Assembly: GCA_963846325.1 (NCBI GenBank)
Contig: CAWJVO010000009.1
Span: 251,083-315,082, forward strand
DNA: 64,000 bases
Source: an uncultured bacterium
GTDB taxonomy: Bacteria > Krumholzibacteriota > Krumholzibacteriia > Krumholzibacteriales > Krumholzibacteriaceae
Direction: 5' to 3'
Program-made: the position numbers and the translations under genes
Part shown: positions 28,280-45,927 of the stretch, in pieces
How the letters are laid out: the number at the start of each line of letters is the position of its first letter
Position numbering within the stretch: position 1 is the first letter of the stretch
The notes under the pieces: generated by a model
Databases searched by the model: none
The model's input: the letters and a program-made list of their open reading frames with translations, nothing else
What the model was told of the DNA's origin: nothing

Positions 28280-30180
28280 CGTTTTCCCTCCGGAACGCCC
28301 GTGTTCTCAAGCCGCTTCCGGGCTTCCTCGATATTCTTCGAGACGCTTTCGTTATCAGGATCGATGTCGAGAATCTTCTTCCACTGTTCGACGGCGCTCG
28401 TGTACTTGCCCTGGGTGAAGAATTTCATCCCTTCGATGTACAGCGCGCGAACCTGCGCCTTTTCCTTGTCGGTGAGCGGCGTCATGCGTCGCTGGGCGCG
28501 AAGCAGGAGCCTCCGTCCCTCCTCATGGGTCGGCTCGAGCCTGAGAAGCTCGCCGAGCCCGGCGGACGCCTCGGCGTACTTTCCGTCTCCGAACGCCTTG
28601 ACGGCGCCGTCGAAGAGCTCCATGACCCTGAGCTTCTTGCTCGTTTGCGTGTAATCCCTGCTCATCTCGTCGAGACGCCGGTTGATCCTGTCCGCGGCCT
28701 CTTTCGCTTCGACCGATTCGGGATCGAGCGTCCGAACGACGTTCCATTCGCCGAGGGCGGCCGCGAGCTGCCCCTGCCTCTCGAGCTCGCCCGCCCGCGC
28801 GCGATGCTGTTCCGCGAGGCTTCCGAGCTTCTCCTCGGTCTTCCCGAGGTACTCGAGCGCGCTCGCGTTCGACGAATCGAGCGCGAGGACGTTGCGCCAT
28901 TCCGCGCGGGACAGAACGTAGTCGTCCGTGCTGTAGTAATCGAGGCCGAGCTTGAAATGCCGGCTGATGAGAGCGGCCTTCTCGGCGTCCTGCGTGCGCG
29001 AGCGCTCCTCGGCGAGAATGGTCCGCTCCACGACGGCGAGCGTCTCGGCGACCGCCGTATTCGTCGGGTCGTACTCGAGGGCGAGCTTGAGCTCGTCGAG
29101 CGCCTTGCCGAGCGCTCCTTCCTTCCGGTAGCGTTCCGCCTCGCTCACGTGGCCGGAAATCCGCTTCGAGAGAATCTGCCGGATGCGTCCCTCCTCCTCG
29201 ACGAGGCGGCGCTGCTCGCGCGCAGCGATCTTCTCCTCGATCGACTCGCCGATGCGGGACGACAACGTCAGGGGATGCGAGCTCCCCGCGTCTCCGCGGC
29301 TGAAAAAGCCGTAGTCGAACGAGAAGCCCCGCCACCCGAGGCCGAGGCCCGCCGTGATCGACTCGGAATCGAATCCGACGCGGACGCTGACGAAATTCTT
29401 GAACAGGTATTCCGCGCCGAACCGGAACTCTTTCTCATCGCGCTGCGGAGCGTTCATCTGGAGCGCGAGCGAGAGCGACGAACCGTTCGCGAACGGATAG
29501 ATGTATCCCGCGCCCACCATGATCGTCCGGTCGACCTTGTCGGTCAGCGTGACGAGCTTCGTTTCCGCCCCGACGATATCCTGCAGGTTGCATCCCACGG
29601 CGACTCTCCGGACGTACTTCGGCCGGTACACGAATCCGATATCGAGCCCCGTTCCGGCGGCCGAGAGCTCGCCGACCCTCTGGTTGAGCACCTTGACCGA
29701 GGCGCCGGCCGTCACGTCGCCGACGTAACGCCACGGGAGATCGAACGCGTAGCCGAGAATCACCTGGCTCTCGCGGTAGTCGAGCTCTCCCGTTTCCCTG
29801 CTGAATTCGTCGAATCCTCTGATACCGCCCGTTCCGACCGTCATGATCCCGAGGCCGATCGAGCCGGCCGAGATCGTCGGATACACGAGCCCCAGAAAAT
29901 CGTACGTCGCGTCGCTGAAGCCCGACAGAAGCTGGATATGATTGAGCACCGCGCCGGGACGGCGGCACAGCCGCAGCGCCGCGGGATTGTAATAGAGAAC
30001 GGAAGCGTCGTCCCCGATCGCGGAAAAAGCGCCTCCGAGGGCGATCGCCCGGGATCCCGCGCCGATGCTGAAGACGGACCGCGTGCCCCCCGTTCCATCC
30101 TGCGCGGCGGCGTCAACCGAAGCGACGGAGAGAACGCAGGCGATCGATATGAGGATGACGAGCTTCTTCATGATACCCAC
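28276..30180 (-). CDS. FadL/PorV-like outer-membrane beta-barrel domain fused to a C-terminal TPR-repeat region
   Basis: A signal peptide (MKKLVILISIACVLSVASVDAAAQ) is followed by a FadL/PorV-type N-terminal motif (SRAIALGGAFSAIGDDASVLYYNPAAL). The barrel spans about 300 aa. About 330 aa of TPR-like helices follow (ALDELKLALEYDPTN..., AVEQWKKILDIDPDN). The family call rests on recalled motifs. The stop overlaps the downstream GTG start. Confidence 0.55.
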   Translation of the reverse strand: MGIMKKLVILISIACVLSVASVDAAAQDGTGGTRSVFSIGAGSRAIALGGAFSAIGDDASVLYYNPAALRLCRRPGAVLNHIQLLSGFSDATYDFLGLVYPTISAGSIGLGIMTVGTGGIRGFDEFSRETGELDYRESQVILGYAFDLPWRYVGDVTAGASVKVLNQRVGELSAAGTGLDIGFVYRPKYVRRVAVGCNLQDIVGAETKLVTLTDKVDRTIMVGAGYIYPFANGSSLSLALQMNAPQRDEKEFRFGAEYLFKNFVSVRVGFDSESITAGLGLGWRGFSFDYGFFSRGDAGSSHPLTLSSRIGESIEEKIAAREQRRLVEEEGRIRQILSKRISGHVSEAERYRKEGALGKALDELKLALEYDPTNTAVAETLAVVERTILAEERSRTQDAEKAALISRHFKLGLDYYSTDDYVLSRAEWRNVLALDSSNASALEYLGKTEEKLGSLAEQHRARAGELERQGQLAAALGEWNVVRTLDPESVEAKEAADRINRRLDEMSRDYTQTSKKLRVMELFDGAVKAFGDGKYAEASAGLGELLRLEPTHEEGRRLLLRAQRRMTPLTDKEKAQVRALYIEGMKFFTQGKYTSAVEQWKKILDIDPDNESVSKNIEEARKRLENTGVPEGKR

Positions 30181-30184: not shown

Positions 30185-33100
30185 TCACTTTGCGACGGCG
30201 ATCTTGAAGAGCGCCGATTGCGAGCCCGCCTCGACCTTGCACATGTACACGCCGTTTCTCACGAGCTCTCCCCGGTCGTTTCGGCCGTTCCACGGGATCT
30301 CGTGCCATGTCCCTTCCGGCGCGCCCGTGCCTCCGGCGTCTCCCGAGCCGATGCTCCTGGTCCAGACGAGCCGGCCGCCGAGGTCGTAGATCTTGATCGA
30401 AACGGCCGAGTTCTTCTTCAGGAAATAGCAGATCTTCGTCGGCTCGGTCCCCGCCCTGAACGGATTCGGATAGTTGTGGACGTATTCGTCGAAACGCGCG
30501 CTCATGATCGAGAGCGGACCGCTCCGGAAATGCCCCGCGATGTCGCCTCCGTCGAGCTCCAGCGCGACTCCGATCCGCGTCCCCGATTCGCTGATGGAGA
30601 CGACGACGTCCGCGCTGCGCCCGATCTCGAACCTGATCTCCCCGGCGAGCGCCCTCGCGGCGATGTCGGCCGCGAGCAGCAGCGTGTCGGCGCTGCCGGG
30701 CGCCAGGGTGAATCCGTGTCCGACGACGATCGGAACGGGATTGCGGCCCGCGACCGCGGCCGAATACTCCGATCCGCCGACCGCGCACGAGAGCGAAGCG
30801 ACCGACCTGGCCGGATCCGCGGCGGGACTGCCCCGTCCGTCCTCGATCGCCACGTAGAGCGTGTCGAGACCGATGGTGAAACCGGAAGCGTTTTTCAGGA
30901 CGATCCGCATCACGGGAACGTCCTGAGCGCCCTGAGGAACGACGAACGGCGGTATCGAATCCGCGCTCGACGCGTTCGACATCAGAACGGAGCCCGCCTG
31001 CGTCTGAACGGGGATGAACGCCGCTCCGGTCGATATCTCGCACGGGAGGTTCGTATTGACGTCGGTCGCGTACGGCTCGATGAGCCTCACCTCGATGTTT
31101 CCCGGGGAGGTCGGCGACGCGGGCGCCCTGACGTTCCATACGACGCTCTGTCCCGGGTAGAACGGCTTGCGATACGTCTCCGGGGCACCGTCGAGCGCAT
31201 ATCCCTGCCCGGCGGGTAGCACGATCTCCATCCGCGCTCCCGTCGTATCCAGCGCCGCTTCTCCCGATCTCGCCGCGGTCGCCTCGATCGTGAACGGCAG
31301 ACTGATCGACACGGATCCGTCGAGAGCCTCGTCCGGTCCCGAGATTCGAGCGCTCATGGCGAGCGCCGGCCTGATCAGCACGTGAACGGGAAAGACGACG
31401 CGGCACGTCCCGACGACGCGGCCGGAGTTGACGTCCTTCCCGCCCGCGCGAACGACGAGCGTGTCGGCGTCGACATGGCCCATCGGAGCCCTCATGATCC
31501 AATCGACCGTCACCTGCGTCCCCGTCCCCCTGCCGATGAACCGGGTCCGGTCGCCGATGACGGAGAATCCCGCCGGCGCCGAGATTTCGATCCATACCGA
31601 GTCGGTGCTCGCCGAGGGGCTGAAAATCGCCCGGGCCGTGAAATCCTGCTCGGTCGAGAGCGTGCCGTCGACGGCTCCCTGCGGAGCGGCGATCGAAATC
31701 GCGCATCCGCTCACGCCTCCCGCTTCCACGGTCCGGAGCGCCACGGCCGATTCGATCAGGCGGACGGCCGCCGGAAGGGCCGTATTGACGCCGTCGGGGA
31801 TCCGGCTGATGCGCGCTTTCACGGTGTCCTGCGACGGCGCCGCGGGCGCGACGAGCGTCCAGGAGACGGCGCTGCCGGTTCCGAGACGCTTCACGAGCGG
31901 ATCCGCCGAGTTCGCGAGGAGCACGGACGGCGGGAGCGCGAGAGTCACCTCTCCCGTCGTATCGACGAGCGCCTGCCCTTCGTTGGAGACGGCGGCGGTG
32001 ACGACGAAGGTCTGGCCGACCGAGAGCGTGTCGTCGAGAGCGCCCGCGGGGGCCGTGACCGAGACGCCGCACGAGAGGAGCGCGGGGAGCTCGATGCGGA
32101 GATTCTCTATCGACTCCGCCGCCTGGGCCGGATAGACGCGCTCGCCCGTGTTCACCGAAACCGCGTAGACGATCGACGAGGTCAATATCTCGCTCCCGGG
32201 CGCCGAAGCGGCGACGATCGAGAATGCGAAATCCCTTTCCGACTTCGAGGGGACGGACACGAGCGAATCGCCGACGATCGCGGTTCGCGTGGCGCCGTTC
32301 GAGACGAGGTGCACGTTGACGCTGTCGAGATCGTCCCCCCCCGTATTCTCGACGCGGACGGTCACGCCGAACGCCTGATCGGTATCGACGACCGACGTGT
32401 TGGGGAAGAGCGCGTTATTCGGCGCGTCGCTCGTCACCGAAACGATCCGCAGACCGGACGGCGCCTTGACGCGCACCGATCCCGAGCCGGCCGCGGAGCC
32501 AGGCTCGCGAAGCGGATCGTTCATATCCGTCCATCCGGCTCCGGCGTCGATCGCGACCATGCCCGTATCGCCGCCGGTCGAGGAGATGCGATAGATGAGC
32601 GAATCCGAGGCTCCCCCGGCGAGTGAGAAGGAGCTCGAGCCCGAGCCGAGCGTATCGGGAGCGATGACGAAATAATCGTAACGCCTCGTGCCGAGGAGCG
32701 AGAACGCAAGATCCGAAGCCGCCGGAGCGCGGAGCGCGAGAGGCGCCTCTCCCCTGTTCGCGATGGAGACGCTTACCGTCCAGTCCGCGGCCTGGCTTGC
32801 GTTCACCTCGCCCTGCGAAGGTCTGACGGAGAATATCTCGAGCGCCGCGAGGCTCTGTATGATCGCGCGCGTCGTGTCGTCGAGAGCCGGATTGACGCGG
32901 ACGAGATCGCTCTCGCGTGAGTTGCCGTCGAGAGCGCCCCTGATATGCGCCCTGAACGTTTCGAGCCCGCTCGCGGTCCCCGCCGTGATCCTGAAGGTGT
33001 CGGACTCCGCCGCCGCGCCGCTCAACGCGCCCAGGACGAGGAGGGTATCTTCGATGCCGGAAGAGCCGGAGTGTTCGAGCGCCACCCGAATACTCTCAGC

Positions 33101-36100
33101 CGGCGCCTCTCCTTCATTAATTACTTCAAATGATACTTGGAACCGTTGATCAATATTGATATAAGGAGATCGCGGAGCTTCATTCTCAACCTGCGCGATT
33201 CTGATCTGCGCCGGGGCCTGAACGCGCATAGCGCCCGAACCCGATCCCGCCTGCCTCGTGTCGAAAGCGCTGTATATCGAGCTGTTGCTCTCGATGAATC
33301 CCGCGTGCGCGTGCAGGACGATATCCGCGCCCGACGGAATATCGGGCGTCGGCGATACGGAGAATACGAGGTGCTTGCAGCTTCCTCCCTCGAGGACGAG
33401 GCCTCCTTCCGAGAACGCCGCGGGCGCGGCCTGCGAGAAGGGCAGCCTTCCGTCGTAGAACACGTACATGCTGTCCGTGACCAGCGTGAGATCGGCCTCG
33501 CCGCCGTTGCACACCTCGAGCGTGATTTCCCAGGGCGTCGCCTGACCCGAGGTCACCGCGGTTCTCTCCGGAGTCGTCCGCGCGATCGCCGGCGAACCCG
33601 GATTCTGGATGGCCGCGTAGCTGAAACCACCGTCGAATGTGTCGTCGACGATCGTGAGCCCGCTGTTGATGTCGACAGCCGTCACCTTTCCGTTCACGAG
33701 CGCGAGCCCGCTCGTCGAGCCCGTGGGCGTGACGACGAAGACGAGGCTGTCGACGGCGCCCCCGGCGAGCGTGTCGGTCCCGGATCCCTCGAGGCGATCG
33801 GGATAGTCGATCCCGTATTCGTACGTCCGGTCGCCGATCCCGACGAGATTGAAGTTGATGAAGGTCTTCGCCGCGTTGAAATCGATCACGACGGAGGCCT
33901 CGCCGTTATTCCTGAGCACCATGCGCGCCTGCCATGCGGCGCTCTGGGACCGGGTCACCGATTGCGGCACCACGATGCGGTTGATGCTGAGCTGCGGAGC
34001 CTGTTCGACGCTCACCGAATCGCTCAGCGCTCCGAGGACCGCGGAGAACGGATTGCCGTTCTCGGTGCCTTCGAGATGCAGGGACACGGGGAACGTCACG
34101 TGCGCGATGGCGGTATCGACAGGCGCGTTTCTGAAGAACAGGGTGATTTCTCCGCCGCTCGCGAGAACATGCTCCGAGACCGGAGAAAGGGTCGTCCTGA
34201 AGGTGTCGCCGTCGGCGTCACCGAAGCTCAGGAACACCTTTCCGGGATCGAGAACGAGCGTCGAGCGACTCAGCGCGTCGCTCGAGATTCGCGCTTCGAA
34301 CGAGACGCTCGCCCCGCTGCTCACGACGGCCGGCGTGAGGCTGCCGGCCACGTAACGCGGATCGGCACGGAGATCGAAGGAAACGCTGTCGTCGCTCGAC
34401 GGGGCGTACCGCTCCGCATGGAGCGTTCGTCCGCTGTTGTTCTCCGACGCGAGTATCGCCCCCGTAAGAACCTGCCTTCCGGGGAGGATCGAGCCCGTCG
34501 TGCGCACGACGAACGGGAGGATCGCGGTCGAACCGCCGCGGAGCGTCCGTCCGCCCCCCGGAATCTCCGCGGGATTCTCGATCGAGAAACCCGTGCCCTC
34601 GGGAACCGCGACCCACGTCGAGTCGACGCGGTCGAGAAGGAGCGTGGCGTCCGATTCGCCCGTGTTGCGGACTTCCATCTCGATCGTCCAGTCGCGTTCC
34701 TGGGCGATCGTCACCGGATCCTGCAGGGAGGCGAACCCGACGACTTCGAGATCGGCCTCCGATTGGACGAGCACGTCTCCATGAATCCCCGAGGCGCCGC
34801 TCGAAACCGTGAAAGCTCTCTCGCTGTTGATTTCGACGGCGCGTACCGTCGAGGTGATCGAGCAGACGCCGGGAACGGAGCCTGTCCGATCTATGCGATA
34901 GCGAAGCGTATCGGTCGAGCCCCCCTCGACCACGACGCCTCCGCCCGCGAGCTCCGAGGGGCTCGCGACCAGAAAATCGCCCGACGTCGAGAAAGCGAGG
35001 AAGGAGTTCGATTCGCTGAGGTCGAGAGCGACGTCCGATTGTCCGGTGTTCGCGAGAACGACATCCACCGTCCAGACCCGGCGCTGGTAGGCCGTCACGG
35101 TATCCGCCGAAGGGACGATCGCGGCGACGGCGAGGTCCGCCGGGGTCTGAACGAGATAGCTTCCTTTACCGCCGAACTCGGTCGTCGCGATGAGAACGGC
35201 GCCGCTGTTCATATCTCTGCCCCATATCTTCGATTCGACGACGATCGTCCCGGTCGTCATCGGTCCCGCGACGTTGTCCCTGAATCGCTCGGCGATGATC
35301 TTGTACGACCCCCCGTTCAACGTGTCGACGCCGGGATTGAGATTGAGCGCCGTGAGGACGCACTCGGAGGTGACTTCCGTCGAGCCCGCGTAGAGCCTGA
35401 CCTTGAGGCTGTCGAGACGAACCGCCGCGCCGCCGTTATTATCGACGCGGATCGAAGCGAACCACTCCTTCGCCTGATCCGCCGTGATGCTGTCCGACGG
35501 AAACACCGTCGTGCTCGCGATCGCGAGCTGCGGCGGGCTCTGGACCGCGATCGCGTCCGTCGGCGAGAGGTTCGTCGAGAAAGGCAAACCGTTTTCCGTT
35601 CCCTTGACCCGCACCGCGGGCAGATAGCTCCCCGTCGGCAAGGCGTCCGGAATCGTCACCGCGTTGAAATAGAGCGTTCTCGCGCCGGGCGCGACGGTTG
35701 TCCCGCGCGAACCGTCGAGCTTCGCCGTATAGACGACCGGGCCCGAAGAGAACGTGATCCAGGTCGAATCGGGATCGCAGGCGACCGTCGCCCCTCCCGA
35801 GTTGTCGATTCCGACTTCGAATGCGACCGCGCTCCGCTTGCTCACCGGCGTCGGCGCGATGCTGCCGGGACGATAGGCGAGCTGCGCCGGATCCACCACG
35901 ACGATCGCGTCTCCGAGAACGAGCGTTTGGCTGAACGATGCGCCGTTCTCGGTGCCACGGAGCCGGACCGAAACGGGCCAGCTCCCGGCATCCATGGCGA
36001 GCGGCACGGCCGCGGGCGGAAAGACGATATTCGTCACCGCGCCGCCGGGAAGCGCGCCTTCCGCGCCGAGGGCGACCCGCAGCGTATCGACTCCGTCGGT

Positions 36101-39100
36101 GAACGAGAGCCGCGTGCCGGAGCCGCTGAGAATGACCGCCGCCTGGCCGTCGTTTCTGAGAGACACGGAGAATCCGTGGCTTTGCCCCTTCGAAACGACG
36201 CCGGGGTTCAGCGAACCGGGCACATACGCGATCGAGGCGGCCGACTGCACGAAGATCGGAGCCGCGTTCGGATACGCGGACGCATCCTGGGCCTGCGAGC
36301 CGTCCACCGAAGCGGTGACGGAGGCGTCGATGGTATCGGCGCCGAGAGGCGAGTTCGCGAGCACGTACATGCTCCGCCGGTAATCCCGCTCCGCGCCGGC
36401 CGGAAGATTATCGGGAAGGGCCGGATTCCATGTCCCGGTCACGCCGAAATAGCCGTGCTCGTAGCTGGGCACGATATCGTTCACGGAGACGAACGATCCG
36501 CCGCCGTTCTTGATCCGCACGTCGACCTCGAAGGTGTCCCCTCTGCTCACGATCGACGGAGCGGTGACCCGCATGATTTCGATATCGGAGACGGAGACGC
36601 TGTTCGAACCGGCGCTGAATTCCACCTGGTACGGCGAGCCGTACACGTCGGTTCCGACGAGCCTGACACGCGGCGTGTACGTTCCGCCGAGCATGCCCGC
36701 GGGGACTGCCGTCGTCTCGAAATCGAGCGTGTCCGTCGCCGATCCTCCCAGAAGGACCGGCGCGGCCAGGTGCGCGTCGTAGATATTCGAAGCGCTGTCC
36801 GCGAAGGAAATGAAGGTCTGCGTCGTCAGGTTCAGCCCCGTCGCGCTGCCGTTCGCGGCCGAGCACCTGAAGGTCGCCGGCTGCGTCGGGGTGAGGTAGC
36901 GGGGCGCGAGATATCCCGCGTACGCGCAGGCCGGGGGCGGCGCGAACGCGACGTTGGCCGTGCCGGCGGCGCTCCCCGCCAGGCTCTGGAACTGTATCGC
37001 GGAGAGCCCCGGCGTCGTGCCCGATCGGATGAAAACGGATACGGCCCCGCTCGATTCGGTCTGCCGCTCGACGGTGAGAGGCGTCGACGGATCCTTGTCC
37101 TCGCTCCCCACGGATCCGAGACTCGGCGTCACCCTCACGAGGCTGCCCGTCGCGACGATATTGCCGTACGCGTCGCGGACCGGGTTCGTCGTGATCGTGG
37201 AAACGCTCGACCCGTTCGCCGTTATCGTGCCGGGCACGATCGAGAAGAACGTGATGGCGCCGCTCGGAACCGCCGGTCTCACCGTGATCGTGTCGCTCGA
37301 GCTGAGCGCCCCTCCGGCGAGCGTCTGGGCCCGCAGGACGAGCTTCTCCGCCCTGTTATCGTACACGGTCACCGCCGCGCGGCCGTTCGTCAGTGTCACG
37401 GGATTCACCGAGAATACGGCCGAGCCGTCGCTCGCGAGATTCACGCGGCTCGTGTCGTCCTGAGTCGCTTCGTTGCCGTCGAGATCGTAGGCGATGAGCT
37501 GGAGCGCAAAGCTCTGACCGGCCGTCTTCGAATAACCGTCGGGCAGGACGTCGAATCGCGCGATCGAGCCGGCGGCCGTTCCGACGGTGAACAGCACACG
37601 CTCGAGCGCCGGCGGATTCGCGTCCAGAATCGAGGCGGAAACCGAATTGACCCCGGAATGCGTATCGGTCGTGAGACTGCAGACGGCGGCGCCCGTCGCG
37701 TCGGTCAGAACGAGCCCGTCTCCCGGCGCTCCCGTTCCGTCCCAGAGGCTCGGGCTTCCGCCGAGGTTGCTTGTGATGACGAAGCGGACGATCTCGGACG
37801 GCGCCGCGTTCCCGTATTCGTCGCTCACGCGCGCCCTGAGGCCGATCTTCGAACCGACGGGGACGCCGAGCGTGTCTCCCCGCACCTCGACGATCCGATA
37901 CGCGGGTCCGGGCCGAATGGTGATGAGATCGCTCCACTCCGAGAGGCTGTCCCCCGCGAGCGACAGCACGCGAATGCGATTGAAACCCGCCGTCGAATCG
38001 GATGCGGAGAATGACGAACGTCCCGCGGCCAGCGTCATCACGCCCGGAACGAACGCCATCGTCGTGCGCCGCGCGACGCAGCGCAGCTGCGAGCTCGAAT
38101 CGGTATCGATCAGGTTGCCGTATTCGTCGTACGCCGCGACGTTCCCCGTGAACGACTCGCCCGCCTGGAAAGAAACCCCCGGCAGCTCGAGCGATACCCG
38201 GGCGATCGCGCTCTTCGGCACGGTCGTCACGGTGAAGCTCTGCGTCTCGAGCCCTTCCGGATTCGCGTCGAGAATCGACGCGCGCACACGGTTCGTGCCC
38301 TGCAGCGTGTCGGTCCTGAACCAGAGCGAGGCGTTCCCGTTTCCGTCGGTGACGGCCTGCGGAGCCGCGAGCCGGCCGCCTCCCTCCTGCACGGTGAAGA
38401 ACACCGTCTGGCCGTTCACCGCGTTTCCGTAGCTATCGGCGACCCTCACGCGGAGCCTCAGCGAATCCCCGACCTGCACGCCGGTGCTGTCCCCGCCGAG
38501 CTTCACGAGCTGGTAGGCGGCGGCGTTGTCGACGGCCACGACGCCGCTGTAGCCCTTGATTGGATTGGCGGCGCTCGCCACCTCGACGCGGATCGCTTCC
38601 GCGACGGTGTACCGGAACCCATTCCCGGTGAACAATCCATTGACGAGGCTCCCGTTCGCCACCGAGAGCGCGCCCGACGCGACCAGGGAGCTGTCCGCGG
38701 CCTGAACGGCCCGGAAATCGATCGTATATCCCGCGGTCGTGACCCTGTTGTCGAAACGGTCCCTCGCTTCCGCCGAGACCGTGAAATCGGCGCCCGCCGT
38801 CGCGTTCGACGGCGCGACGACGACGTATGAGCTCACCGTGTCGTTCGGCACGATCGTGATGCTGAACTGATCCGGGGAGAGCGCTTCGACCTTGTCCCTG
38901 ACCTGAATCGGCCAGATTCCCTGCTTCGATCCCCTCCCGTAGAGCGTGACGACGCCGCCCGCGAGATCGGCTTCCGCGACCGGCGCGCCGAAATTCGTGA
39001 GGCTGAACGTGAATCCCCCCGCCACCGGCGGTTCGAGAACGATCCGGCTCGCGTTCGTGAGGTCTCGGTTTCCGTTCCCGTCGACCGCCTCGATCCTGAA

Positions 39101-41641
39101 CGAGAACGTGACTCCCGCCTGGCTGGTCTGTCCGGAGATGACCGTCGCCGCGAGGTCGGTGGCGCCGCTCGCGACCGACGAATAGGTAACGTCGGCGACG
39201 TTCTCCGCCGGGATCGAGTTGCCGGCGTCGATGACGTCGGAGAGCCCGGCCGACGCAGGCGCGTTGTACGTCACCGCGACGGTGCCCGTGCTGTCGCTCT
39301 TGCCCCTGCGCGCGTAGAGGCCAAGCGCCTCCGTGGAGCTTCCCGCGGCCGCCGTCAGCGTTCCGTCGGGCGAATCCTTGATGAATATCGTTACATACTC
39401 GTCCGGTATGAGATTGCCGAAAGCGTCGCGCATCGTCGCCGTCGCGATCGTCGGAGAGTTGACGGTGACCGATTTGCTCGTCGGGGTCAGCACGATGGAG
39501 CTGATCGTTCCGTGGTCGGTCGTCGCGACGAACGACACCGTGCGTATCGAACCCGACGGCATCGAGGCGTCGAGAGCGTCGGAGTCGATCCCGCTCACCG
39601 TTCCGAGCCGCCAGAGCTCCCCTGCCGCCGTCCCGCCGCTCCCCGTGACCGAGGTCATCTGCTGCCCCCCGAGGGTGCGGCTCGCGTCGAAATAGCCTCC
39701 GCCGCTCGTAATTGCCCAGCTCACCGTCACGCCGGGAACCGGGTTTCCGAATGCGTCTTCGACCCGGACGACGAGGGACGCGGCCACTTCCTGATTGACG
39801 ACGGCGCGCTGATCGTCGCCGCTCACGAGAAGCATTCGATCGGGAGAGGCGTATCCCACGACGAGGGGCGTCGCGGACGACGATGTCACGGCGCCGCTCG
39901 AAGCGTAGATCGTGATCGATTCGACCTTGTTGTCGGTGATGCCGAGCTCGGCGTCGCCTCCATCCACGGGGACGAACTGATACCTGACCGTGTCTCCGAT
40001 CTCGGAGAGGATCGAACCCGCCGCGTTTCCGAGGCCCCACGTGATGAAGTCGCCCGGTACCGTCGAGCTCGTATATATCTTCGCGATGCCGCTGAAATCG
40101 GTAATCCTGTTATTCTGGGCGTCGCGCGCGTCGAACGTCACCGGGGACGATTGGCCCGCCGTCGCCGTGCCGGGGTGCGTCACGTTGAAATGATGAAGCG
40201 TCCCCGCGCCGAAGGTGACCGCCACGGTTTTCGTAATGTCCGCACCGTCCGCCTTCGCGCTGATCGTTTTCCCCTCGGCGACGGTCGATTTCAGACTTCC
40301 GATCGCGCGGCCGTTCCCATCGGTTACTTCGATGGGCTGGCCGAATATGTTCCCGCTGCCCGTCGCTGCAATCGTCACGGTCTTCCCTGCGATACCGTTT
40401 CCCTGCGCATCCCGCGCGTAGACCGTCACGGCTATCCCATCGATCCCGTCCGCGACGGCTGAAGATTTGTCCACCTGTACGTCCGAAACCGCCGCGCTGA
40501 AGAGTCCCGGGGCAAACGTCACGTTTTGCGTCTGCGTAATCGGCGTCGCACCCACCCTCGCGCTGACCGTCTTCAGCTCCGCCTTCGTCGACCGCAGCTT
40601 CCCTACCAGCCGCCCGTCCGCCCCCGTCACTCCCGACGAGGGAGTGATCGTGTTCAACGTCCCCGTCGCCTCTATCGTCACCGAGCTCCCCGCTATCGGG
40701 TTCCCCTGAGCGTCCGTCACAAGCGCCGTCACCGCGATCGAGTCAGTCCCGTTCGCCACAGCCAACGCCTTGTCCACCGTTACCGTCGAAACCGCCGCGC
40801 TGAAGAGTCCCGCGGCAAACGTCACATTTTGCGTCTGCGTAATCGGCGTCGCACCCACCCTCGCGCTGACCGTCTTCAGCTCCGCCTTCGTCGACCGCAG
40901 CTTCCCGACCAGCCGCCCGTCCGCCCCCGTCACTCCCGACGAGGGAGTGATCGTGTTCAACGTCCCCGTCGCCTCTATCGTCACCGAGCTCCCCGCTATC
41001 GGGTTCCCCTGAGCGTCCGTCACAAGCGCCGTCACCGCGATCGAGTCAGTCCCGTTCGCCACAGCCAACGCCTTGTCCACCGTTACCGTCGAAACCGCCG
41101 CGCTGAAGAGTCCCGCGGCAAACGTCACGTTTTGCGTCTGCGTAATCGGCGTCGCACCCACCCTCGCGCTGACCGTCTTCAGCTCCGCCTTCGTCGACCG
41201 CAGCTTCCCGACCAGCCGCCCGTCCGCCCCCGTCACTCCCGACGAGGGAGTGATCGTGTTCAACGTCCCCGTCGCCTCTATCGTCACCGAGCTCCCCGCT
41301 ATCGGGTTCCCCTGAGCGTCCGTCACAAGCGCCGTCACCGCGATCGAGTCAGTCCCGTTCGCCACAGCCAACGCCTTGTCCACCGTTACCGTCGAAACCG
41401 CCGCGCTGAAGAGTCCCGCGGCAAACGTCACGTTTTGCGTCTGCGTAATCGGCGTCGCACCCACCCTCGCGCTGACCGTCTTCAGCTCCGCCTTCGTCGA
41501 CCGCAGCTTCCCTACCAGCCGCCCGTCCGCCCCCGTCACTCCCGACGAGGGAGTGATCGTGTTCAACGTCCCCGTCGCCTCTATCGTCACCGAGCTCCCC
41601 GCGATCGGGTTCCCCTGCGCATCCGTCACAAGCGCCGTCAC
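30185..41641 (-). CDS. giant Big_1 (invasin/intimin-type Ig-like) repeat adhesin, C-terminal 3818 aa with T9SS C-terminal sorting domain
   Basis: Many Big_1 modules of about 100 aa are present (VTDAQGNPIAGSSVTIEATG...TVDKALAVANGTDSIAVTAL). The C-terminus carries a T9SS/FlgD-Ig-like CTD (YPNPFRAGTEPTKICYFLKKNSAVSIKIYDLGGRLVWTRSI...GVYMCKVEAGSQSALFKIAVAK). It is probably continuous with the 41638-45066 fragments. Confidence 0.8.
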   Translation of the reverse strand: MTALVTDAQGNPIAGSSVTIEATGTLNTITPSSGVTGADGRLVGKLRSTKAELKTVSARVGATPITQTQNVTFAAGLFSAAVSTVTVDKALAVANGTDSIAVTALVTDAQGNPIAGSSVTIEATGTLNTITPSSGVTGADGRLVGKLRSTKAELKTVSARVGATPITQTQNVTFAAGLFSAAVSTVTVDKALAVANGTDSIAVTALVTDAQGNPIAGSSVTIEATGTLNTITPSSGVTGADGRLVGKLRSTKAELKTVSARVGATPITQTQNVTFAAGLFSAAVSTVTVDKALAVANGTDSIAVTALVTDAQGNPIAGSSVTIEATGTLNTITPSSGVTGADGRLVGKLRSTKAELKTVSARVGATPITQTQNVTFAPGLFSAAVSDVQVDKSSAVADGIDGIAVTVYARDAQGNGIAGKTVTIAATGSGNIFGQPIEVTDGNGRAIGSLKSTVAEGKTISAKADGADITKTVAVTFGAGTLHHFNVTHPGTATAGQSSPVTFDARDAQNNRITDFSGIAKIYTSSTVPGDFITWGLGNAAGSILSEIGDTVRYQFVPVDGGDAELGITDNKVESITIYASSGAVTSSSATPLVVGYASPDRMLLVSGDDQRAVVNQEVAASLVVRVEDAFGNPVPGVTVSWAITSGGGYFDASRTLGGQQMTSVTGSGGTAAGELWRLGTVSGIDSDALDASMPSGSIRTVSFVATTDHGTISSIVLTPTSKSVTVNSPTIATATMRDAFGNLIPDEYVTIFIKDSPDGTLTAAAGSSTEALGLYARRGKSDSTGTVAVTYNAPASAGLSDVIDAGNSIPAENVADVTYSSVASGATDLAATVISGQTSQAGVTFSFRIEAVDGNGNRDLTNASRIVLEPPVAGGFTFSLTNFGAPVAEADLAGGVVTLYGRGSKQGIWPIQVRDKVEALSPDQFSITIVPNDTVSSYVVVAPSNATAGADFTVSAEARDRFDNRVTTAGYTIDFRAVQAADSSLVASGALSVANGSLVNGLFTGNGFRYTVAEAIRVEVASAANPIKGYSGVVAVDNAAAYQLVKLGGDSTGVQVGDSLRLRVRVADSYGNAVNGQTVFFTVQEGGGRLAAPQAVTDGNGNASLWFRTDTLQGTNRVRASILDANPEGLETQSFTVTTVPKSAIARVSLELPGVSFQAGESFTGNVAAYDEYGNLIDTDSSSQLRCVARRTTMAFVPGVMTLAAGRSSFSASDSTAGFNRIRVLSLAGDSLSEWSDLITIRPGPAYRIVEVRGDTLGVPVGSKIGLRARVSDEYGNAAPSEIVRFVITSNLGGSPSLWDGTGAPGDGLVLTDATGAAVCSLTTDTHSGVNSVSASILDANPPALERVLFTVGTAAGSIARFDVLPDGYSKTAGQSFALQLIAYDLDGNEATQDDTSRVNLASDGSAVFSVNPVTLTNGRAAVTVYDNRAEKLVLRAQTLAGGALSSSDTITVRPAVPSGAITFFSIVPGTITANGSSVSTITTNPVRDAYGNIVATGSLVRVTPSLGSVGSEDKDPSTPLTVERQTESSGAVSVFIRSGTTPGLSAIQFQSLAGSAAGTANVAFAPPPACAYAGYLAPRYLTPTQPATFRCSAANGSATGLNLTTQTFISFADSASNIYDAHLAAPVLLGGSATDTLDFETTAVPAGMLGGTYTPRVRLVGTDVYGSPYQVEFSAGSNSVSVSDIEIMRVTAPSIVSRGDTFEVDVRIKNGGGSFVSVNDIVPSYEHGYFGVTGTWNPALPDNLPAGAERDYRRSMYVLANSPLGADTIDASVTASVDGSQAQDASAYPNAAPIFVQSAASIAYVPGSLNPGVVSKGQSHGFSVSLRNDGQAAVILSGSGTRLSFTDGVDTLRVALGAEGALPGGAVTNIVFPPAAVPLAMDAGSWPVSVRLRGTENGASFSQTLVLGDAIVVVDPAQLAYRPGSIAPTPVSKRSAVAFEVGIDNSGGATVACDPDSTWITFSSGPVVYTAKLDGSRGTTVAPGARTLYFNAVTIPDALPTGSYLPAVRVKGTENGLPFSTNLSPTDAIAVQSPPQLAIASTTVFPSDSITADQAKEWFASIRVDNNGGAAVRLDSLKVRLYAGSTEVTSECVLTALNLNPGVDTLNGGSYKIIAERFRDNVAGPMTTGTIVVESKIWGRDMNSGAVLIATTEFGGKGSYLVQTPADLAVAAIVPSADTVTAYQRRVWTVDVVLANTGQSDVALDLSESNSFLAFSTSGDFLVASPSELAGGGVVVEGGSTDTLRYRIDRTGSVPGVCSITSTVRAVEINSERAFTVSSGASGIHGDVLVQSEADLEVVGFASLQDPVTIAQERDWTIEMEVRNTGESDATLLLDRVDSTWVAVPEGTGFSIENPAEIPGGGRTLRGGSTAILPFVVRTTGSILPGRQVLTGAILASENNSGRTLHAERYAPSSDDSVSFDLRADPRYVAGSLTPAVVSSGASVSFEARISSDALSRSTLVLDPGKVFLSFGDADGDTFRTTLSPVSEHVLASGGEITLFFRNAPVDTAIAHVTFPVSLHLEGTENGNPFSAVLGALSDSVSVEQAPQLSINRIVVPQSVTRSQSAAWQARMVLRNNGEASVVIDFNAAKTFINFNLVGIGDRTYEYGIDYPDRLEGSGTDTLAGGAVDSLVFVVTPTGSTSGLALVNGKVTAVDINSGLTIVDDTFDGGFSYAAIQNPGSPAIARTTPERTAVTSGQATPWEITLEVCNGGEADLTLVTDSMYVFYDGRLPFSQAAPAAFSEGGLVLEGGSCKHLVFSVSPTPDIPSGADIVLHAHAGFIESNSSIYSAFDTRQAGSGSGAMRVQAPAQIRIAQVENEAPRSPYINIDQRFQVSFEVINEGEAPAESIRVALEHSGSSGIEDTLLVLGALSGAAAESDTFRITAGTASGLETFRAHIRGALDGNSRESDLVRVNPALDDTTRAIIQSLAALEIFSVRPSQGEVNASQAADWTVSVSIANRGEAPLALRAPAASDLAFSLLGTRRYDYFVIAPDTLGSGSSSFSLAGGASDSLIYRISSTGGDTGMVAIDAGAGWTDMNDPLREPGSAAGSGSVRVKAPSGLRIVSVTSDAPNNALFPNTSVVDTDQAFGVTVRVENTGGDDLDSVNVHLVSNGATRTAIVGDSLVSVPSKSERDFAFSIVAASAPGSEILTSSIVYAVSVNTGERVYPAQAAESIENLRIELPALLSCGVSVTAPAGALDDTLSVGQTFVVTAAVSNEGQALVDTTGEVTLALPPSVLLANSADPLVKRLGTGSAVSWTLVAPAAPSQDTVKARISRIPDGVNTALPAAVRLIESAVALRTVEAGGVSGCAISIAAPQGAVDGTLSTEQDFTARAIFSPSASTDSVWIEISAPAGFSVIGDRTRFIGRGTGTQVTVDWIMRAPMGHVDADTLVVRAGGKDVNSGRVVGTCRVVFPVHVLIRPALAMSARISGPDEALDGSVSISLPFTIEATAARSGEAALDTTGARMEIVLPAGQGYALDGAPETYRKPFYPGQSVVWNVRAPASPTSPGNIEVRLIEPYATDVNTNLPCEISTGAAFIPVQTQAGSVLMSNASSADSIPPFVVPQGAQDVPVMRIVLKNASGFTIGLDTLYVAIEDGRGSPAADPARSVASLSCAVGGSEYSAAVAGRNPVPIVVGHGFTLAPGSADTLLLAADIAARALAGEIRFEIGRSADVVVSISESGTRIGVALELDGGDIAGHFRSGPLSIMSARFDEYVHNYPNPFRAGTEPTKICYFLKKNSAVSIKIYDLGGRLVWTRSIGSGDAGGTGAPEGTWHEIPWNGRNDRGELVRNGVYMCKVEAGSQSALFKIAVAK

Positions 41642-42895
41642 CGTCGACCGAGTCCAGCCCCGTTCGCCACAGCCAACGCCTTGTCCACCGTTACCGTCGA
41701 AACCGCCGCGCTGAAGAGTCCCGCGGCAAACGTCACGTTTTGCGTCTGCGTAATCGGCGTCGCGCCCACCCTCGCGCTGACCGTCTTCAGCTCCGCCTTC
41801 GTCGACCGCAGCTTCCCTACCAGCCGCCCATCCGCCCCCGTCACTCCCGACGAGGGAGTGATCGTGTTCAACGTCCCCGTCGCCTCTATCGTCACCGAGC
41901 TCCCCGCTATCGGGTTCCCCTGAGCGTCCGTCACAAGCGCCGTCACCGCGATCGAGTCAGTCCCGTTCGCCACAGCCAACGCCTTGTCCACCGTTACCGT
42001 CGAGACCGAGGCGCTGAACGGCCCCGGGGGTGAACGTCACGTTTTGCGTCGTGCGTGATAGCCGTCGCGCCCACCCTCGCGCGTGACCGTCTTCAGCTCC
42101 GCCTTCGTCGACCGCAGCTTCCCTACCAGCCGCCCGTCCGCCCCCGTCACTCCCGACGAGGGAGTGATCGTGTTCAACGTCCCCGTCGCCTCTATCGTCA
42201 CCGAGCTCCCCGCTATCGGGTTCCCCTGAGCGTCCGTCACAAGCGCCGTCACCGCGATCGAGTCAGTCCCGTTCGCCACAGCCAACGCCTTGTCCACCGT
42301 TACCGTCGAAACCGCCGCGCTGAAGAGTCCCGCGGCAAACGTCACGTTTTGCGTCTGCGTAATCGGCGTCGCACCCACCCTCGCGCTGACCGTCTTCAGC
42401 TCCGCCTTCGTCGACCGCAGCTTCCCGACCAGCCGCCCGTCCGCCCCCGTCACTCCCGACGAGGGAGTGATCGTGTTCAACGTCCCCGTCGCCTCTATCG
42501 TCACCGAGCTCCCCGCTATCGGGTTCCCCTGAGCGTCCGTCACAAGCGCCGTCACCGCGATCGAGTCAGTCCCGTTCGCCACAGCCAACGCCTTGTCCAC
42601 CGTTACCGTCGAAACCGCCGCGCTGAACGGGCCCGGCACGAACGTAACTCCTCGGGAATTCGTGATCCCGACCCCTCCCGCCTTTGCGCTGATCGTCTTC
42701 AACTCCGCCTTCGTCGACCGAATTTTCGAGATCATCCGCCCGTCCGAACCGCTCAATCCCGCGGGAGGACTGATCGTGTTCGAGCTGCCTGTCGCTTCGA
42801 CAGTCACAACGCTTCCGCTTATCGGATTCCCCTGCGCGTCGGATACAAACACCGTTACGGTGACCGAGTCCGCCCCGTTCGCCGTCACCGTCGTT
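40467..42895 (-). repeat. tandem array of 303-bp (101-aa Big_1) coding repeats, several copies 100 % identical
   Basis: Identical plus-strand shadow ORFs recur at 40770, 41073, 41376 and 42290 (period 303). Divergent copies flank the array at 40467 and 42593. Confidence 0.85.
41638..41991 (-). CDS. adhesin fragment (one Big_1 repeat unit) isolated by frame disruptions
   Basis: The 117-aa sequence is identical to the repeat consensus. It is flanked by indel-containing repeat junctions. Confidence 0.5.
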   Translation of the reverse strand: MDKALAVANGTDSIAVTALVTDAQGNPIAGSSVTIEATGTLNTITPSSGVTGADGRLVGKLRSTKAELKTVSARVGATPITQTQNVTFAAGLFSAAVSTVTVDKALAVANGAGLGRR

Positions 42896-45066
42896 TTGTC
42901 CACTTGCACGTCCGACACCGCCGGGCTGAACGCCCCGGACGTGAACGTCACGTTTCTCGTCTGCGTAATCGGCGTCGCACCCACCCTCGCGCTGACCGTC
43001 TTCAGCTCCGCCTTCGTCGACCGCAGCTTCCCGACCAGCCGCCCATCCGCCCCCGTCATACCCGACGAGGGAGTGATCGTGTTCAACGTCCCCGTCGCCT
43101 CTATCGTCACCGAGCTCCCCGCGATCGGATTCCCGCTCGCATCCGTCACAAGCGCCGTCACCGTCACCGAGTCCACCCCGTTCGCCACAACCGTCGTCTT
43201 GTCCACTGTCACCGTCGAGACCGAGGCGCTGAACGCCCCGGGGGTGAACGTCACGTTCTGCGTCGTCGTGATAGCCACCCCGCCCACCCTCGCCGTGATC
43301 GTCTTCAGCTCCGCCTTCGTCGATCGCATTTTCCCGATCAGACGTCCGTCGGCTCCCGTCACTCCCGACGAGGGAGTGATCGTGTTCAACGTCCCCGTCG
43401 CCTCGAACGCCACGAAGCTGCCGCTTATCGGATTGCCATAGACATCCGTCACGAGAGCCGTCACCACGATCGAGTCGGCCCCGTCCGCTACGGCCGTCGA
43501 CTTGTCCACCGTCACATTCGAGGCCGCGGCGCTGAAGGGTCCGGGGGTGAAGGTCACCCCGGTAGATTCCACGATATCGACGCCGTCGATCTTCGCCGTG
43601 AGCGTTTTTCCCTCCGCCTTCATCGAAAGGATGCTCCCGACGGCGGAACCGGTTCCGCTCGTAACACTCGAGGGCTGATGGAGAACATTGCCGGAACCCG
43701 TCGACGCGATCAGAATGGTCGCTCCGTCGACGCCGTTGTAGAATACGTCGCGAGCCCTGATGGTGACCTCGATCGAATCCACGCCGTTTGCGATCGCCGA
43801 CGCCTTGTTGACCGATATTTCGGATGTGCTGGTATCAAATGGAGCGTTATCGATGTAGATCTGGGCCGATGCGGCCTCGAGCGTGGGAGGAATTCCGTTC
43901 ACGTCGAGGAACGCGAGGTCCACGGGGACGGCCATTTCCTTATCCGTGTTCCGGTAATCGAGATATGCATGATCGGAGCCGCTCGGTATGACGATCGACG
44001 TGATCGGCGTCGCATGGTCGGCCGTCGAATAGAAATCGCCCGGCTGTCCGAAAAGCGATATTCCTTGATCGTTGAGGAGCGGACTCGCGTTGCCCTCCGC
44101 GTCCTCGACCCCGAGCCGGTACCTCGCGTAATCCCCCGCGACGACTGTCGTATCGGATGGAGAGGCCATGAGTCTGAAAGGGGCGCCGGGATCGACGGTG
44201 ATCGCCTGTTGAGCGTCCGTCCACGATTGGCCGGAAGCGGAAGCGGTGATGGTCTTTCCGCCGGCGACCGCATCCCGGTAGTACAGCGATACCGTATCGA
44301 GTCCCGACGCGACGACGACCACGCTCGTCTCGACGAAATTCGAGCCTCCGAGATGCGAGAACCGGCCGCCGATCGCGGTCGAGCTCAACGAGATATTCTG
44401 ATCGCCGCTCACCGGGGAGGGATTGCCGAACTCATCCTCGGTTCTCACGCGGATCACGGCGCTTTCGCCGTCGGCGGGAAACGTCTGCGGCGAAGTGACG
44501 AACGAGAGCTGCACGATGGGTCCCGCGACGACGTTGAGCGTCGGCGACGACGCTATCGCAGCCTTGCCGGAGCCGTCGGGATTCGATCTCACGATGAATG
44601 GGACGCCGCTCTCGGCGCCGGTCTGGGCAGTCGCCCGGCCGCCGAGGTCGATACTCGCGTCGCCATACACGATGTCGATCGTCTGCCCGACCGACAGCGT
44701 GTCGACGGATATGGAAATCGTTCTGACGGCTATCGCGATGGCGGGCGCGCCGAGCACCCCTTCGCTCGATACGGTCACATATCCGGCAAGAGACGATGCG
44801 GAGATCTGGGGCGCGGACCAGCCGTCGGGAATCTCGAGCTCGATCGCCCCCGAAGTGAATGCTTCGGCGGCGGTGTAACGGATCGTCCAGGTGCCCGACT
44901 CTCCGACTACGACGTCGCTCGAAGGATTGATCGTCGCCGTCCCCGAGCCTCCCGCGCCGAAGGCCGCACCCGCGGCGAGCAGCGCGAAAACGCAGAGGCT
45001 CGCGGCGAGCGCGCGGTGTCGCAAGGAGATCGGAATCCTACGCTTCATGTACTCGATCCTGTTCAT
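42037..45066 (-). CDS. adhesin N-terminal fragment: signal peptide + Big_1/Ig-like repeats (1009 aa)
   Basis: MKRRIPISLRHRALAASLCVFALLAAGAAFGAG is a signal peptide. The C-terminal part of the ORF runs into the same 303-bp repeat array as the 30185-41641 ORF. Confidence 0.75.
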   Translation of the reverse strand: MNRIEYMKRRIPISLRHRALAASLCVFALLAAGAAFGAGGSGTATINPSSDVVVGESGTWTIRYTAAEAFTSGAIELEIPDGWSAPQISASSLAGYVTVSSEGVLGAPAIAIAVRTISISVDTLSVGQTIDIVYGDASIDLGGRATAQTGAESGVPFIVRSNPDGSGKAAIASSPTLNVVAGPIVQLSFVTSPQTFPADGESAVIRVRTEDEFGNPSPVSGDQNISLSSTAIGGRFSHLGGSNFVETSVVVVASGLDTVSLYYRDAVAGGKTITASASGQSWTDAQQAITVDPGAPFRLMASPSDTTVVAGDYARYRLGVEDAEGNASPLLNDQGISLFGQPGDFYSTADHATPITSIVIPSGSDHAYLDYRNTDKEMAVPVDLAFLDVNGIPPTLEAASAQIYIDNAPFDTSTSEISVNKASAIANGVDSIEVTIRARDVFYNGVDGATILIASTGSGNVLHQPSSVTSGTGSAVGSILSMKAEGKTLTAKIDGVDIVESTGVTFTPGPFSAAASNVTVDKSTAVADGADSIVVTALVTDVYGNPISGSFVAFEATGTLNTITPSSGVTGADGRLIGKMRSTKAELKTITARVGGVAITTTQNVTFTPGAFSASVSTVTVDKTTVVANGVDSVTVTALVTDASGNPIAGSSVTIEATGTLNTITPSSGMTGADGRLVGKLRSTKAELKTVSARVGATPITQTRNVTFTSGAFSPAVSDVQVDKTTVTANGADSVTVTVFVSDAQGNPISGSVVTVEATGSSNTISPPAGLSGSDGRMISKIRSTKAELKTISAKAGGVGITNSRGVTFVPGPFSAAVSTVTVDKALAVANGTDSIAVTALVTDAQGNPIAGSSVTIEATGTLNTITPSSGVTGADGRLVGKLRSTKAELKTVSARVGATPITQTQNVTFAAGLFSAAVSTVTVDKALAVANGTDSIAVTALVTDAQGNPIAGSSVTIEATGTLNTITPSSGVTGADGRLVGKLRSTKAELKTVTREGGRDGYHARRKT

Positions 45067-45480
45067 CCTGAATCACCTGAAAGCGGCAAATGAAGGGCAT
45101 CGCGCAAGCTATGTGCCAATAGCATTTTTCAATTGGCATACGCCGCCGAAAATCCTTTCGCGCAGGAACGGGTCGCTCAATTCGAAAAACGGCACCCAGG
45201 ACGGGAATCGCTCCCGTTTCATAATATATTGGTATTATGACAAATACACGCGTCGTTCCGGACTTGTTCGCACGCCGTGCCGACGACATCGGCAACTCTG
45301 CCCCGATCGCGACGATAGGGCGGACCCGAACCCGCGATTCGCGATCGCCTGATCGGAACCAAAATAGCACACGCCGAAGCAAATTGCAATAACTAGAAAG
45401 TCTTTAACTCTTTGTATTAACGTTCGTTAGTAGACACTTCGGAAACGAGCCCCGAAAGAAACCTCGGCATCCCCGAAAAC
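45067..45480. promoter_or_regulatory. intergenic region upstream of the giant adhesin gene with a lower-GC tract (candidate promoter/leader)
   Basis: It is the only sizeable non-coding gap in the surface-protein array, and it is AT-richer (aaatagcacacgccgaagcaaattgcaataactagaaagtctttaactctttgtattaacg). The 45038-45382 ORF overlapping it was rejected. Confidence 0.35.
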
Positions 45481-45485
45481 CTGGC

Positions 45486-45507
45486 AGAAAACCTGGCACG
45501 CGCCAGG
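45486..45507 (-). terminator. possible terminator after the CBM48-lipoprotein cluster
   Basis: On the minus strand a CCTGGC-GCGT-GCCAGG hairpin is followed by TTTTCT. The stem is short. A direct repeat aaaacctggca x2 lies adjacent. Confidence 0.3.
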
Positions 45508-45529
45508 CGGCTATCCGGCGCATTCCCCT

Positions 45530-45925: not shown

Positions 45926-45927
45926 AA

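Follow-up and report, generated by a model that had tools for sequence, protein, structure and literature searches.

We analysed a 64,000-nt stretch of contig CAWJVO010000009.1 (the window), and in particular a minus-strand locus at which mechanical calling of open reading frames (ORFs) yields three ORFs, at 42037-45066 (1,009 aa), 41638-41991 (117 aa) and 30185-41641 (3,818 aa). An earlier note on this DNA had given exactly these three ORFs and had proposed that they are fragments of one gene, coding for an adhesin of about 4,900 aa with a signal peptide, dozens of Big_1 modules and a C-terminal domain (CTD) of a type IX secretion system (T9SS). In good agreement with that size, the deletion of five bases yields a single ORF of 4,958 aa, and we consider it probable that the locus holds one gene of ~14.9 kb for a secreted surface protein that carries immunoglobulin (Ig)-like repeats and a T9SS CTD, and that its interruptions are assembly errors. 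The features of this gene (called here the giant gene) are as follows.

30185-45066, minus strand: giant gene, a single 4,958-aa ORF of ~14.9 kb after removal of five inserted bases
44956-45066, minus strand: predicted Sec-type signal peptide, residues 1-37, from inspection, a hydropathy scan and the layout of homologues
43849-44955, minus strand: N-terminal region, aa 38-406, presumably distal (Pfam scan, self-profile)
40250-43848, minus strand: Big_1 tandem array, aa 407-1604, 12 modules with a period of 101 aa or 303 bp
41638-42091, minus strand: frameshift zone, five single-base insertions in repeat units u5-u7, from the alignment of units
37022-40219, minus strand: about nine divergent Big_1-like Ig modules, aa 1615-2680, where the part colinear with orthologues starts
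31745-36943, minus strand: 14 CARDB-like beta-sandwich modules of ~120 aa each, aa 2707-4439, from a self-profile
30470-31744, minus strand: beta-rich domain or domains and a low-confidence linker, aa 4440-4864, ahead of the CTD, with at least one more beta domain
30188-30469, minus strand: predicted T9SS type A CTD, aa 4865-4958 (TIGR04183 and FlgD_ig on the isolated CTD)

The giant gene runs from an ATG at 45066 to a TGA at 30187-30185; relatives point to an alternative start at the ATG at 45048 (Met7). Its array was detected as a 303-bp tandem repeat of 10.1 copies (Tandem Repeats Finder, 40467-43542). Units u5, u6 and u7 (42348-41435) measure 305, 304 and 305 bp, and every other array unit measures 303 bp. 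Alignment of the units placed the inserted bases near 42083, 42052, 42022, 41658 and 41647, where they create two stops, one at 42039-42037 and the other at 41640-41638. All five lie at switch points between u1/u2-type and u4/u8-type repeat variants, as exemplified by GTCA-C-GCGCG, a blend of the u1-type CACGG with the u4-type CAGCG. When the five bases were deleted, the 4,958-aa ORF became unbroken and the repaired units proved to be ordinary Big_1 repeats. In addition, an orthologue in a related genome (L012) runs without interruption through the counterpart of residues 1377-4958, with which it is colinear and 72% identical, array units included. The three ORFs are read as a single gene because removal of the five bases restores both the repeats and one ORF, and because the orthologue joins array units to the C-terminal part.

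Regarding the origin of the interruptions, the identity matrix of the units shows that u8 and u9 are 100% identical and that u10 is 99.3% identical to both; the array is thus a region where reads of different copies easily mix. Elsewhere in the window, the PPDK gene (51265-54008, minus strand) is split into two overlapping frames with a junction near 52777, at a run of seven G; its N-terminal piece corresponds approximately to PPDK residues 5-416 and its C-terminal piece to residues 387-899, and a relative has an intact PPDK of 917 aa at the same position. Judged from its sequence, this break indicates homopolymer indel errors in the assembly. Furthermore, the 87%-identical orthologue on a related-genome contig (L008, CAVVEY010000007.1, 1-10750) carries at least seven frame changes. 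Since the extra bases sit at blends of variants, and since PPDK and the L008 orthologue carry indels elsewhere, the two interruptions are likeliest to be consensus errors of the assembly inside near-identical 303-bp repeats. The number of Big_1 repeats in the assembly may also be wrong.

The Pfam family Big_1 (PF02369) matched all three pieces very strongly, with 335, 70 and 336 bits against a cutoff of 34.9 (E 3e-102, 1e-19 and 2e-102). Pfam delimited 15 stretches and an iterated self-profile 22 modules, all inside aa 185-2680: the 12 tandem modules and about ten others (one N-terminal, nine past the array). The remaining ~2,200 aa comprise the 14 CARDB-like modules, further beta domains and the CTD, so that nearly half of the protein is not Big_1. 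The presence of Big_1 modules in each fragment was therefore borne out, and the wording of the earlier note, 'dozens' of modules in a gene 'made of' Big_1, overstated their number and share. The CARDB-like modules are built round a V.N.G motif. Summed over the whole protein, Pfam CARDB (PF07705) reached 37.8 bits (sequence cutoff 22.7), and none of the individual stretches exceeded its threshold by itself; homologues bear a precomputed PF07705 match. One such module, modelled by AlphaFold2 with the other 13 as alignment, gave an all-beta Ig-like sandwich with a predicted local distance difference test (pLDDT) score of 95.8; a Foldseek search of this module against the PDB returned generic Ig-fold matches, without any specific or close relative. 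These results show that the protein carries about 40 beta-sandwich modules of Ig-like type in a chain, of which 22 are Big_1-like, 14 CARDB-like and a few of other kinds.

The CTD carries the motifs YPNPF, IKIYDLGGRLVW and WNGRNDRGELVRNGVY and a terminal KIAVAK. When the last 100-120 aa were isolated, TIGR04183 matched with 31.4-32.3 bits (cutoff 23) over profile positions 2-70 of 72, and FlgD_ig with 29.0-29.8 bits (cutoff 27); homologues bear a precomputed PF13860 match, and a 47%-identical homologue is named 'T9SS type A sorting domain-containing protein' by NCBI. The motifs of the CTD line up one by one with those of three further CTDs in the window (54133-56583, 57008-58288 and 62892-63944); all share PNPF, IKIYD..G.LV, W.G.N.RG..V.SGVY and a terminal K..V.R/K, and an 8-aa insertion sets the CTD of the giant protein apart. 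This CTD is near-invariant across six homologues. These matches show that the CTD, as predicted from its sequence, belongs to the T9SS type A class; one of the T9SS CTD profiles thus recognises it in isolation, so that the outcome by which the earlier note's finding would have fallen, a CTD missed by such profiles, did not occur. A type B (SprB-like) CTD was rejected, as CHU_C gave 14.9-15.8 bits against 27 and TIGR04131 was unreported at E up to 1.

Structure prediction was less informative here. AlphaFold2 modelled the last 250 aa with a mean pLDDT of 57 and the CTD with 64-84 and six strands (medium confidence). With the two-domain C-terminal model, Foldseek retrieved PorZ (5m11; 103 columns, root-mean-square deviation 3.0, 28% identity) and PorU (6za2) at E ~5e-4; these stand among many generic Ig-fold matches, in which Ig-fold enzymes dominate, and point weakly towards T9SS proteins. 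A phmmer search of the CTD against PDB sequences returned PorZ only, at E 0.94. The three other window proteins with a T9SS type A-like CTD are an S8 subtilase and two proteins of 426 and 350 aa, the latter with 44 bits on TIGR04183, so CTD-type sorting appears to serve varied cargo in this genome.

At the other end, the 42037-45066 piece begins like a Sec signal peptide, as had been proposed: as judged by eye and from a hydropathy scan, an n-region with basic residues (K8 R9 R10 R16 R18) precedes an 18-residue hydrophobic core, ALAASLCVFALLAAGAAF, and a small-residue cleavage region, G-A-G. An N-terminal signal of this kind is what is expected of type A CTD cargo. The layout recurs in most of 14 N-terminal homologues, most of which begin at the equivalent of Met7. 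The predicted mature N-terminus, GSGTATINPSSDV...GTWTIRYTAAE, is conserved, with the shared pattern GSGTA.I.PSSDV.AG..GTWTIRYTA. No Pfam family was found within aa 38-406, where a lone divergent Big_1-like module (aa 185-277) is the exception.

All named homologues, whether retrieved with the C-terminal 1,019 aa, the N-terminal 410 aa or the downstream gene, belong to Candidatus Krumholzibacteria or Krumholzibacteriota, apart from a few oddly labelled metagenome-assembled genomes (MAGs). None of the 14 N-terminal homologues is a complete gene: all are truncated, and where an end can be read, it lies at the Big_1 array or one to two units into it. A few have scrambled ends, four are NCBI records labelled partial, and the sole locus inspected ends at the contig end. 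The breaks of short-read assemblies fall within the array in every case. Among the C-terminal homologues, five of nine are at a contig end or labelled partial, and the giant-gene fragments at the other close-relative loci examined are likewise at contig ends or partial. Multiple frame changes also interrupt the orthologues at L031, L040 and L041; those of L012 and several other assemblies read through 3,580 aa without a break. The closed genome CP070727.1 holds an intact orthologue of 3,429 aa, colinear with residues 1641-4958 at 48% identity and without the tandem array. Because the orthologues of CP070727.1 and L012 are colinear with the C-terminal part, the C-terminal ~3,300 aa is, from these sequence comparisons, a conserved core, and the Big_1 array appears as a lineage-specific, recently expanded N-terminal extension.

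Directly downstream of the giant gene, as the earlier note had remarked, lie a PorV-like gene and signalling genes. The features of this cluster are the following.

28276-30171, minus strand: PorV/PorQ-family outer-membrane barrel (aa ~30-310) with a C-terminal TPR region, 631 aa (NF033709, TPR families)
24017-28279, minus strand: partner-switching fusion of 1,420 aa (1,337-1,464 aa in relatives), with a 4-nt overlap with the PorV/Q gene
23237-24016, minus strand: ParA/BcsQ-like ATPase, syntenic with the giant gene in relatives
22067-23185, minus strand: TPR protein, syntenic with the giant gene in relatives
21650-22066 and 21164-21622, minus strand: two single-domain STAS proteins, syntenic with the giant gene in relatives
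18872-21145, minus strand: 757-aa protein with weak VWA matches only and no confident family, syntenic in most relatives

The barrel-TPR protein has its own signal peptide, and its ATG at 30171 sits 13 nt past the stop of the giant gene; this ATG, rather than a GTG, is probably its true start, and an exact-sequence look-up of the ORF taken from the GTG gave no match. NF033709 matched it with 104.4 bits (cutoff 90) over profile positions 7-317 of 326. Its homologues, 148 proteins of ~630 aa, are named 'PorV/PorQ family protein' by NCBI, and all those with a phylum name are from Krumholzibacteria or Krumholzibacteriota, save one Bacteroidales-labelled MAG. Assignment to PorV, PorQ or PorP/SprF proper was rejected, as the barrel scored below the cutoffs of NF033710 (18.9 against 250 bits), NF033711 (64.0 against 220) and TIGR03519 (21.1 against 90.55); the ~300-aa TPR extension falls outside these models. 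In the 1,420-aa fusion, a single polypeptide holds a complete partner-switching circuit: RsbW-like kinase, Cache, HAMP, PP2C/SpoIIE phosphatase, an IS481/IS630-like HTH segment (aa 680-800) and three STAS domains. Further on, a 575-aa protein with lamin-tail domains (LTD, 103 bits) is encoded at 15788-17515 (minus strand), downstream of the STAS genes.

The gene order of the cluster was identical in every relative examined. In a synteny survey of 65 loci from species-representative genomes, it was also found at about 40, in Krumholzibacteriota and Latescibacterota (35-40% identity), and reduced forms occur in MAGs of Eisenbacteria, Gemmatimonadota, Glassbacteria and Zixibacteria. At 42 of 43 orthologous loci, the start of a PorV/Q-like barrel gene lies at most 250 nt from the CTD stop. 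Of the seven assessable loci whose similarity is confined to the CTD (identity 37% or more), six have the same linkage; of 12 loci with more distant CTDs, none has it. In the published model, every type A CTD uses a general PorV shuttle (PMC12618676), and type B CTD cargo pairs with cognate PorP/SprF shuttles and anchors (PMC12618676, PMC9143113), SprB binding its cognate barrel SprF (PMC9143113). By analogy, we tentatively propose that the giant protein and the PorV/PorQ barrel-TPR protein might be a cognate pair of cargo and shuttle or anchor for a type A-like CTD. Such a pair might be central to a regulated surface-fibre module that has not been described before. Its other members would be the partner-switching fusion, the ParA-like ATPase, the TPR protein and both STAS proteins, and it would be shared by Krumholzibacteriota, Latescibacterota and candidate phyla near them. 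A dedicated barrel partner for a type A CTD would depart from the published model (PMC12618676).

On the single-gene reading, the cell would make the full-length protein, which would first be exported to the periplasm by Sec and then be directed by its CTD through the T9SS. The C-terminal end would hold the protein at the outer membrane, where it would be passed on to, or retained by, the presumably co-transcribed PorV/Q-family barrel, or else be attached like other type A cargo, for which removal of the CTD by PorU and linkage to anionic LPS would be expected. The N-terminal region and the expandable Big_1 array would project outward as a fibre of ~100-200 nm, with a stalk whose length would vary with the Big_1 copy number. 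The fibre might act in adhesion or aggregation, and the adjacent partner-switching module probably regulates its display post-translationally, a step that is speculation. The adhesin or S-layer-like function suggested by the earlier note is likewise a guess, and a dedicated role of the PorV/Q barrel is proposed from gene linkage.

Several observations weigh against the reading of the locus as one functional gene for a T9SS-secreted adhesin. Recognition of the CTD is marginal in its full-length context: TIGR04183 gave only 21.0 bits, below its cutoff of 23, when the entire 3,818-aa fragment was scanned, and Pfam Por_Secre_tail (PF18962), the match to which spans only the N-terminal half of the profile, remained at 23.7-24.6 bits (cutoff 27) even when the CTD was scanned in isolation. 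The 64-kb window was found to hold no core gene of the T9SS (SprA/Sov, PorK/L/M/N or PorU); its T9SS-related genes are limited to the PorV/PorQ-family gene and the three further CTD cargo genes. In the library searched, no literature tying Krumholzibacteriota or Latescibacteria to T9SS was found. The neighbouring PorV/Q-TPR gene may simply encode the general shuttle of the cell. Furthermore, distant relatives remain colinear over 3,300 aa at 48% identity, which exceeds the usual conservation of adhesins and, as far as sequence conservation can tell, hints at a structural role past simple adhesion. Finally, the frameshifts in the assembled sequence might be true, as in a pseudogene, and the real number of repeats may differ from the assembled one.

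The conservation of the core raises the possibility that the giant protein is not mainly an adhesin and is instead a conserved structural part of a larger regulated surface apparatus that the conserved cluster would build, for example an SprB-like track adhesin of the motility type, a sheath or a fibre. The eight-gene order kept at about 40 loci of two phyla, and partly in Eisenbacteria, Gemmatimonadota and Glassbacteria, argues for it, as do the contrast between the colinear C-terminal 3,300 aa and the lineage-specific array and the precedent of SprB-SprF binding (PMC9143113). However, the search for motor or gliding genes (GldK/L/M/N-like) found none in the window, the CTD is of type A whereas that of SprB is of type B, and synteny alone is no proof of a common machine; we consider this explanation rather unlikely.

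Less likely still is a recently inactivated pseudogene, or a gene switched off in the population, in which the frameshifts are real and at most a secreted, CTD-less fragment of 1,009 aa is made. Five indels and two in-frame stops do stand in the given sequence, none of the indels lies in a long homopolymer, unlike the error in PPDK, and the orthologues at L011 and L038 likewise show frame breaks. Nevertheless, the five indels are confined to 450 bp of an otherwise clean 14.9-kb gene, and they fall exactly at mixed-variant sites, the signature of a consensus drawn from mis-piled reads. The 11.4 kb downstream of the breaks has no further stops and retains a GC content at third codon positions (GC3) of 0.83, the value of the giant-gene frame, which is coding-type in a window of ~64% GC; moreover, a housekeeping gene of the same window, PPDK, is broken too. 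Finally, two or three independent genes (a secreted Big_1 protein at 42037-45066, a small ORF and a separate CTD protein at 30185-41641), as mechanical ORF calling would have it, are highly improbable: the 42037-45066 piece terminates within the shared Big_1 repeat family, the 117-aa piece is one Big_1 unit, the 3,818-aa piece lacks a signal peptide of its own and has its first possible start codon inside a repeat unit, removal of the five bases joins all three into perfect repeats, and L012 holds array units and the C-terminal part in one intact ORF. Taken together, the earlier observation was confirmed in part, and one interrupted gene is the preferred reading; the contiguity of this gene is inferred from its sequence and from relatives.

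The features around the giant gene and its downstream cluster include the following region upstream.

45067-45529, minus strand: upstream intergenic region of 463 bp, locally AT-rich and presumed to bear the promoter

A weak terminator-like hairpin (45478-45462) follows the gene that precedes the giant gene. No riboswitch was found in the 463 bp, which had no Rfam match at E up to 1, and a sigma-70 scan, which may not suit this lineage, gave no promoter. The upstream synteny (PPDK, a cyclic di-GMP-binding PatA_N protein and three CBM48 proteins) is kept in a relative. The CBM48 trio (45530-46359 and 46359-48839, minus strand) comprises two tandem lipoproteins of ~125-135 aa (lipobox LLAGSC and LAVSC), each with a CBM48/AMPK glycogen-binding-type domain, and an 826-aa protein with the same domain that precedes them; L073 keeps this trio, in synteny, on the upstream side of the giant gene, and one member has a weak match to an NCBIfam T9SS plug model (15.5 bits, cutoff 100). 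The 165-aa protein at 50715-51212 (minus strand), which is flanked by PPDK and by the genes preceding the giant gene, has an MshEN/PatA_N-type cyclic di-GMP-binding motif (57 bits against 38) and is conserved in L073. The S8 subtilase ORF has a long upstream extension that overlaps a DUF4438 protein (55929-56849, minus strand; N- and C-terminal domains at E 1e-54 and 3e-46), and the start of the subtilase is therefore probably well downstream of its first possible start codon. The remaining genes of the window are housekeeping genes (purE, purD, arcC and waaA).

Long plus-strand ORFs lie opposite minus-strand genes at 22103-28654 (2,183 aa), 33137-38014 (1,625 aa) and 42055-45093 (1,012 aa). 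They were rejected as genes: the 2,183-aa ORF has no Pfam match, and the 1,625- and 1,012-aa ORFs were judged to be shadows from their position opposite minus-strand genes with strong domain matches and coding-type GC3. These long plus-strand ORFs are shadow ORFs typical of high-GC DNA, and the giant gene stands as the largest feature of the window, as had been noted before.

Giant repeat adhesins are almost always lost from MAGs, and a contig end cuts off each of the partial homologues that were inspected by contig or are so labelled. If the shorter orthologue of CP070727.1 is set aside, the window may be the first case in which such a gene of an uncultivated phylum can be read from end to end. 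It also illustrates how consensus errors in near-identical repeats can split one gene into three ORFs, and documents T9SS-type cargo signals in a lineage for which no T9SS literature was found. The phylum-spanning linkage of CTD, PorV/PorQ barrel-TPR and partner-switching genes provides a testable hypothesis, namely that some type A-like CTDs outside Bacteroidota might have dedicated shuttles or anchors. What goes beyond the ordinary is therefore the full-length reading of an assembly-breaking gene, the lineage in which it is found and the conserved cluster in which the CTD, PorV/Q-TPR and partner-switching genes are linked.

With respect to known systems, the giant protein is of a known kind, the giant CTD-bearing Ig-repeat surface proteins secreted by T9SS. 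The invasin and intimin Big_1 adhesins of Proteobacteria resemble it in their tandem Big_1/Invasin_D3 Ig modules, which serve as a stalk. By contrast, the giant protein is without their N-terminal beta-barrel anchor, LysM domain and C-type-lectin tip, and its anchoring end would be the C-terminal CTD and not the N-terminus. Identity as an intimin or invasin was rejected, since NF033627 gave 71.7 bits against a cutoff of 1,400, over the Ig-repeat region only (positions 560-750). As for the S-layer idea, profile scans of the three pieces matched no SLH or S-layer family, a result that neither supports nor contradicts it.

In Porphyromonas gingivalis, PorU and PorZ retain their CTDs, docking on PorV and PorQ, and the giant protein resembles these PorU-PorV and PorZ-PorQ pairs as a CTD-bearing protein tied to a PorV/PorQ-family barrel. 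Its CTD matches the C-terminal portions of the PorU and PorZ models (33 and 23 bits), scores that cover the CTD portions only, and it lacks the sortase or PorZ body. With the type A CTD cargo of Bacteroidota (TIGR04183/PF18962) it shares the Sec signal peptide, a CTD of ~90 aa that matches TIGR04183 end to end, and the CTD motifs PNPF, GVY and C-terminal K-x-x-V-x-K/R. It differs in its host, related to Candidatus Krumholzibacteria, for which no published description of T9SS was found, and in the tight linkage of a PorV/PorQ-family gene to the CTD subtype.

A further parallel in arrangement is that of the giant gliding adhesin SprB and its adjacent PorP-like barrel SprF in Flavobacterium johnsoniae, where a multi-thousand-residue repeat protein is secreted by its CTD and an outer-membrane barrel of the PorV/PorQ/PorP kind is encoded directly downstream in the same operon (PMC9143113, PMC12618676). 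In that system, the CTD is of type B and the barrel PorP-like, whereas here the CTD is of type A and the barrel is a PorV/PorQ-family protein with a TPR extension. The proposed cognate pair of the giant protein and the barrel-TPR protein would parallel the type B CTD and PorP/SprF pairs of Bacteroidota.

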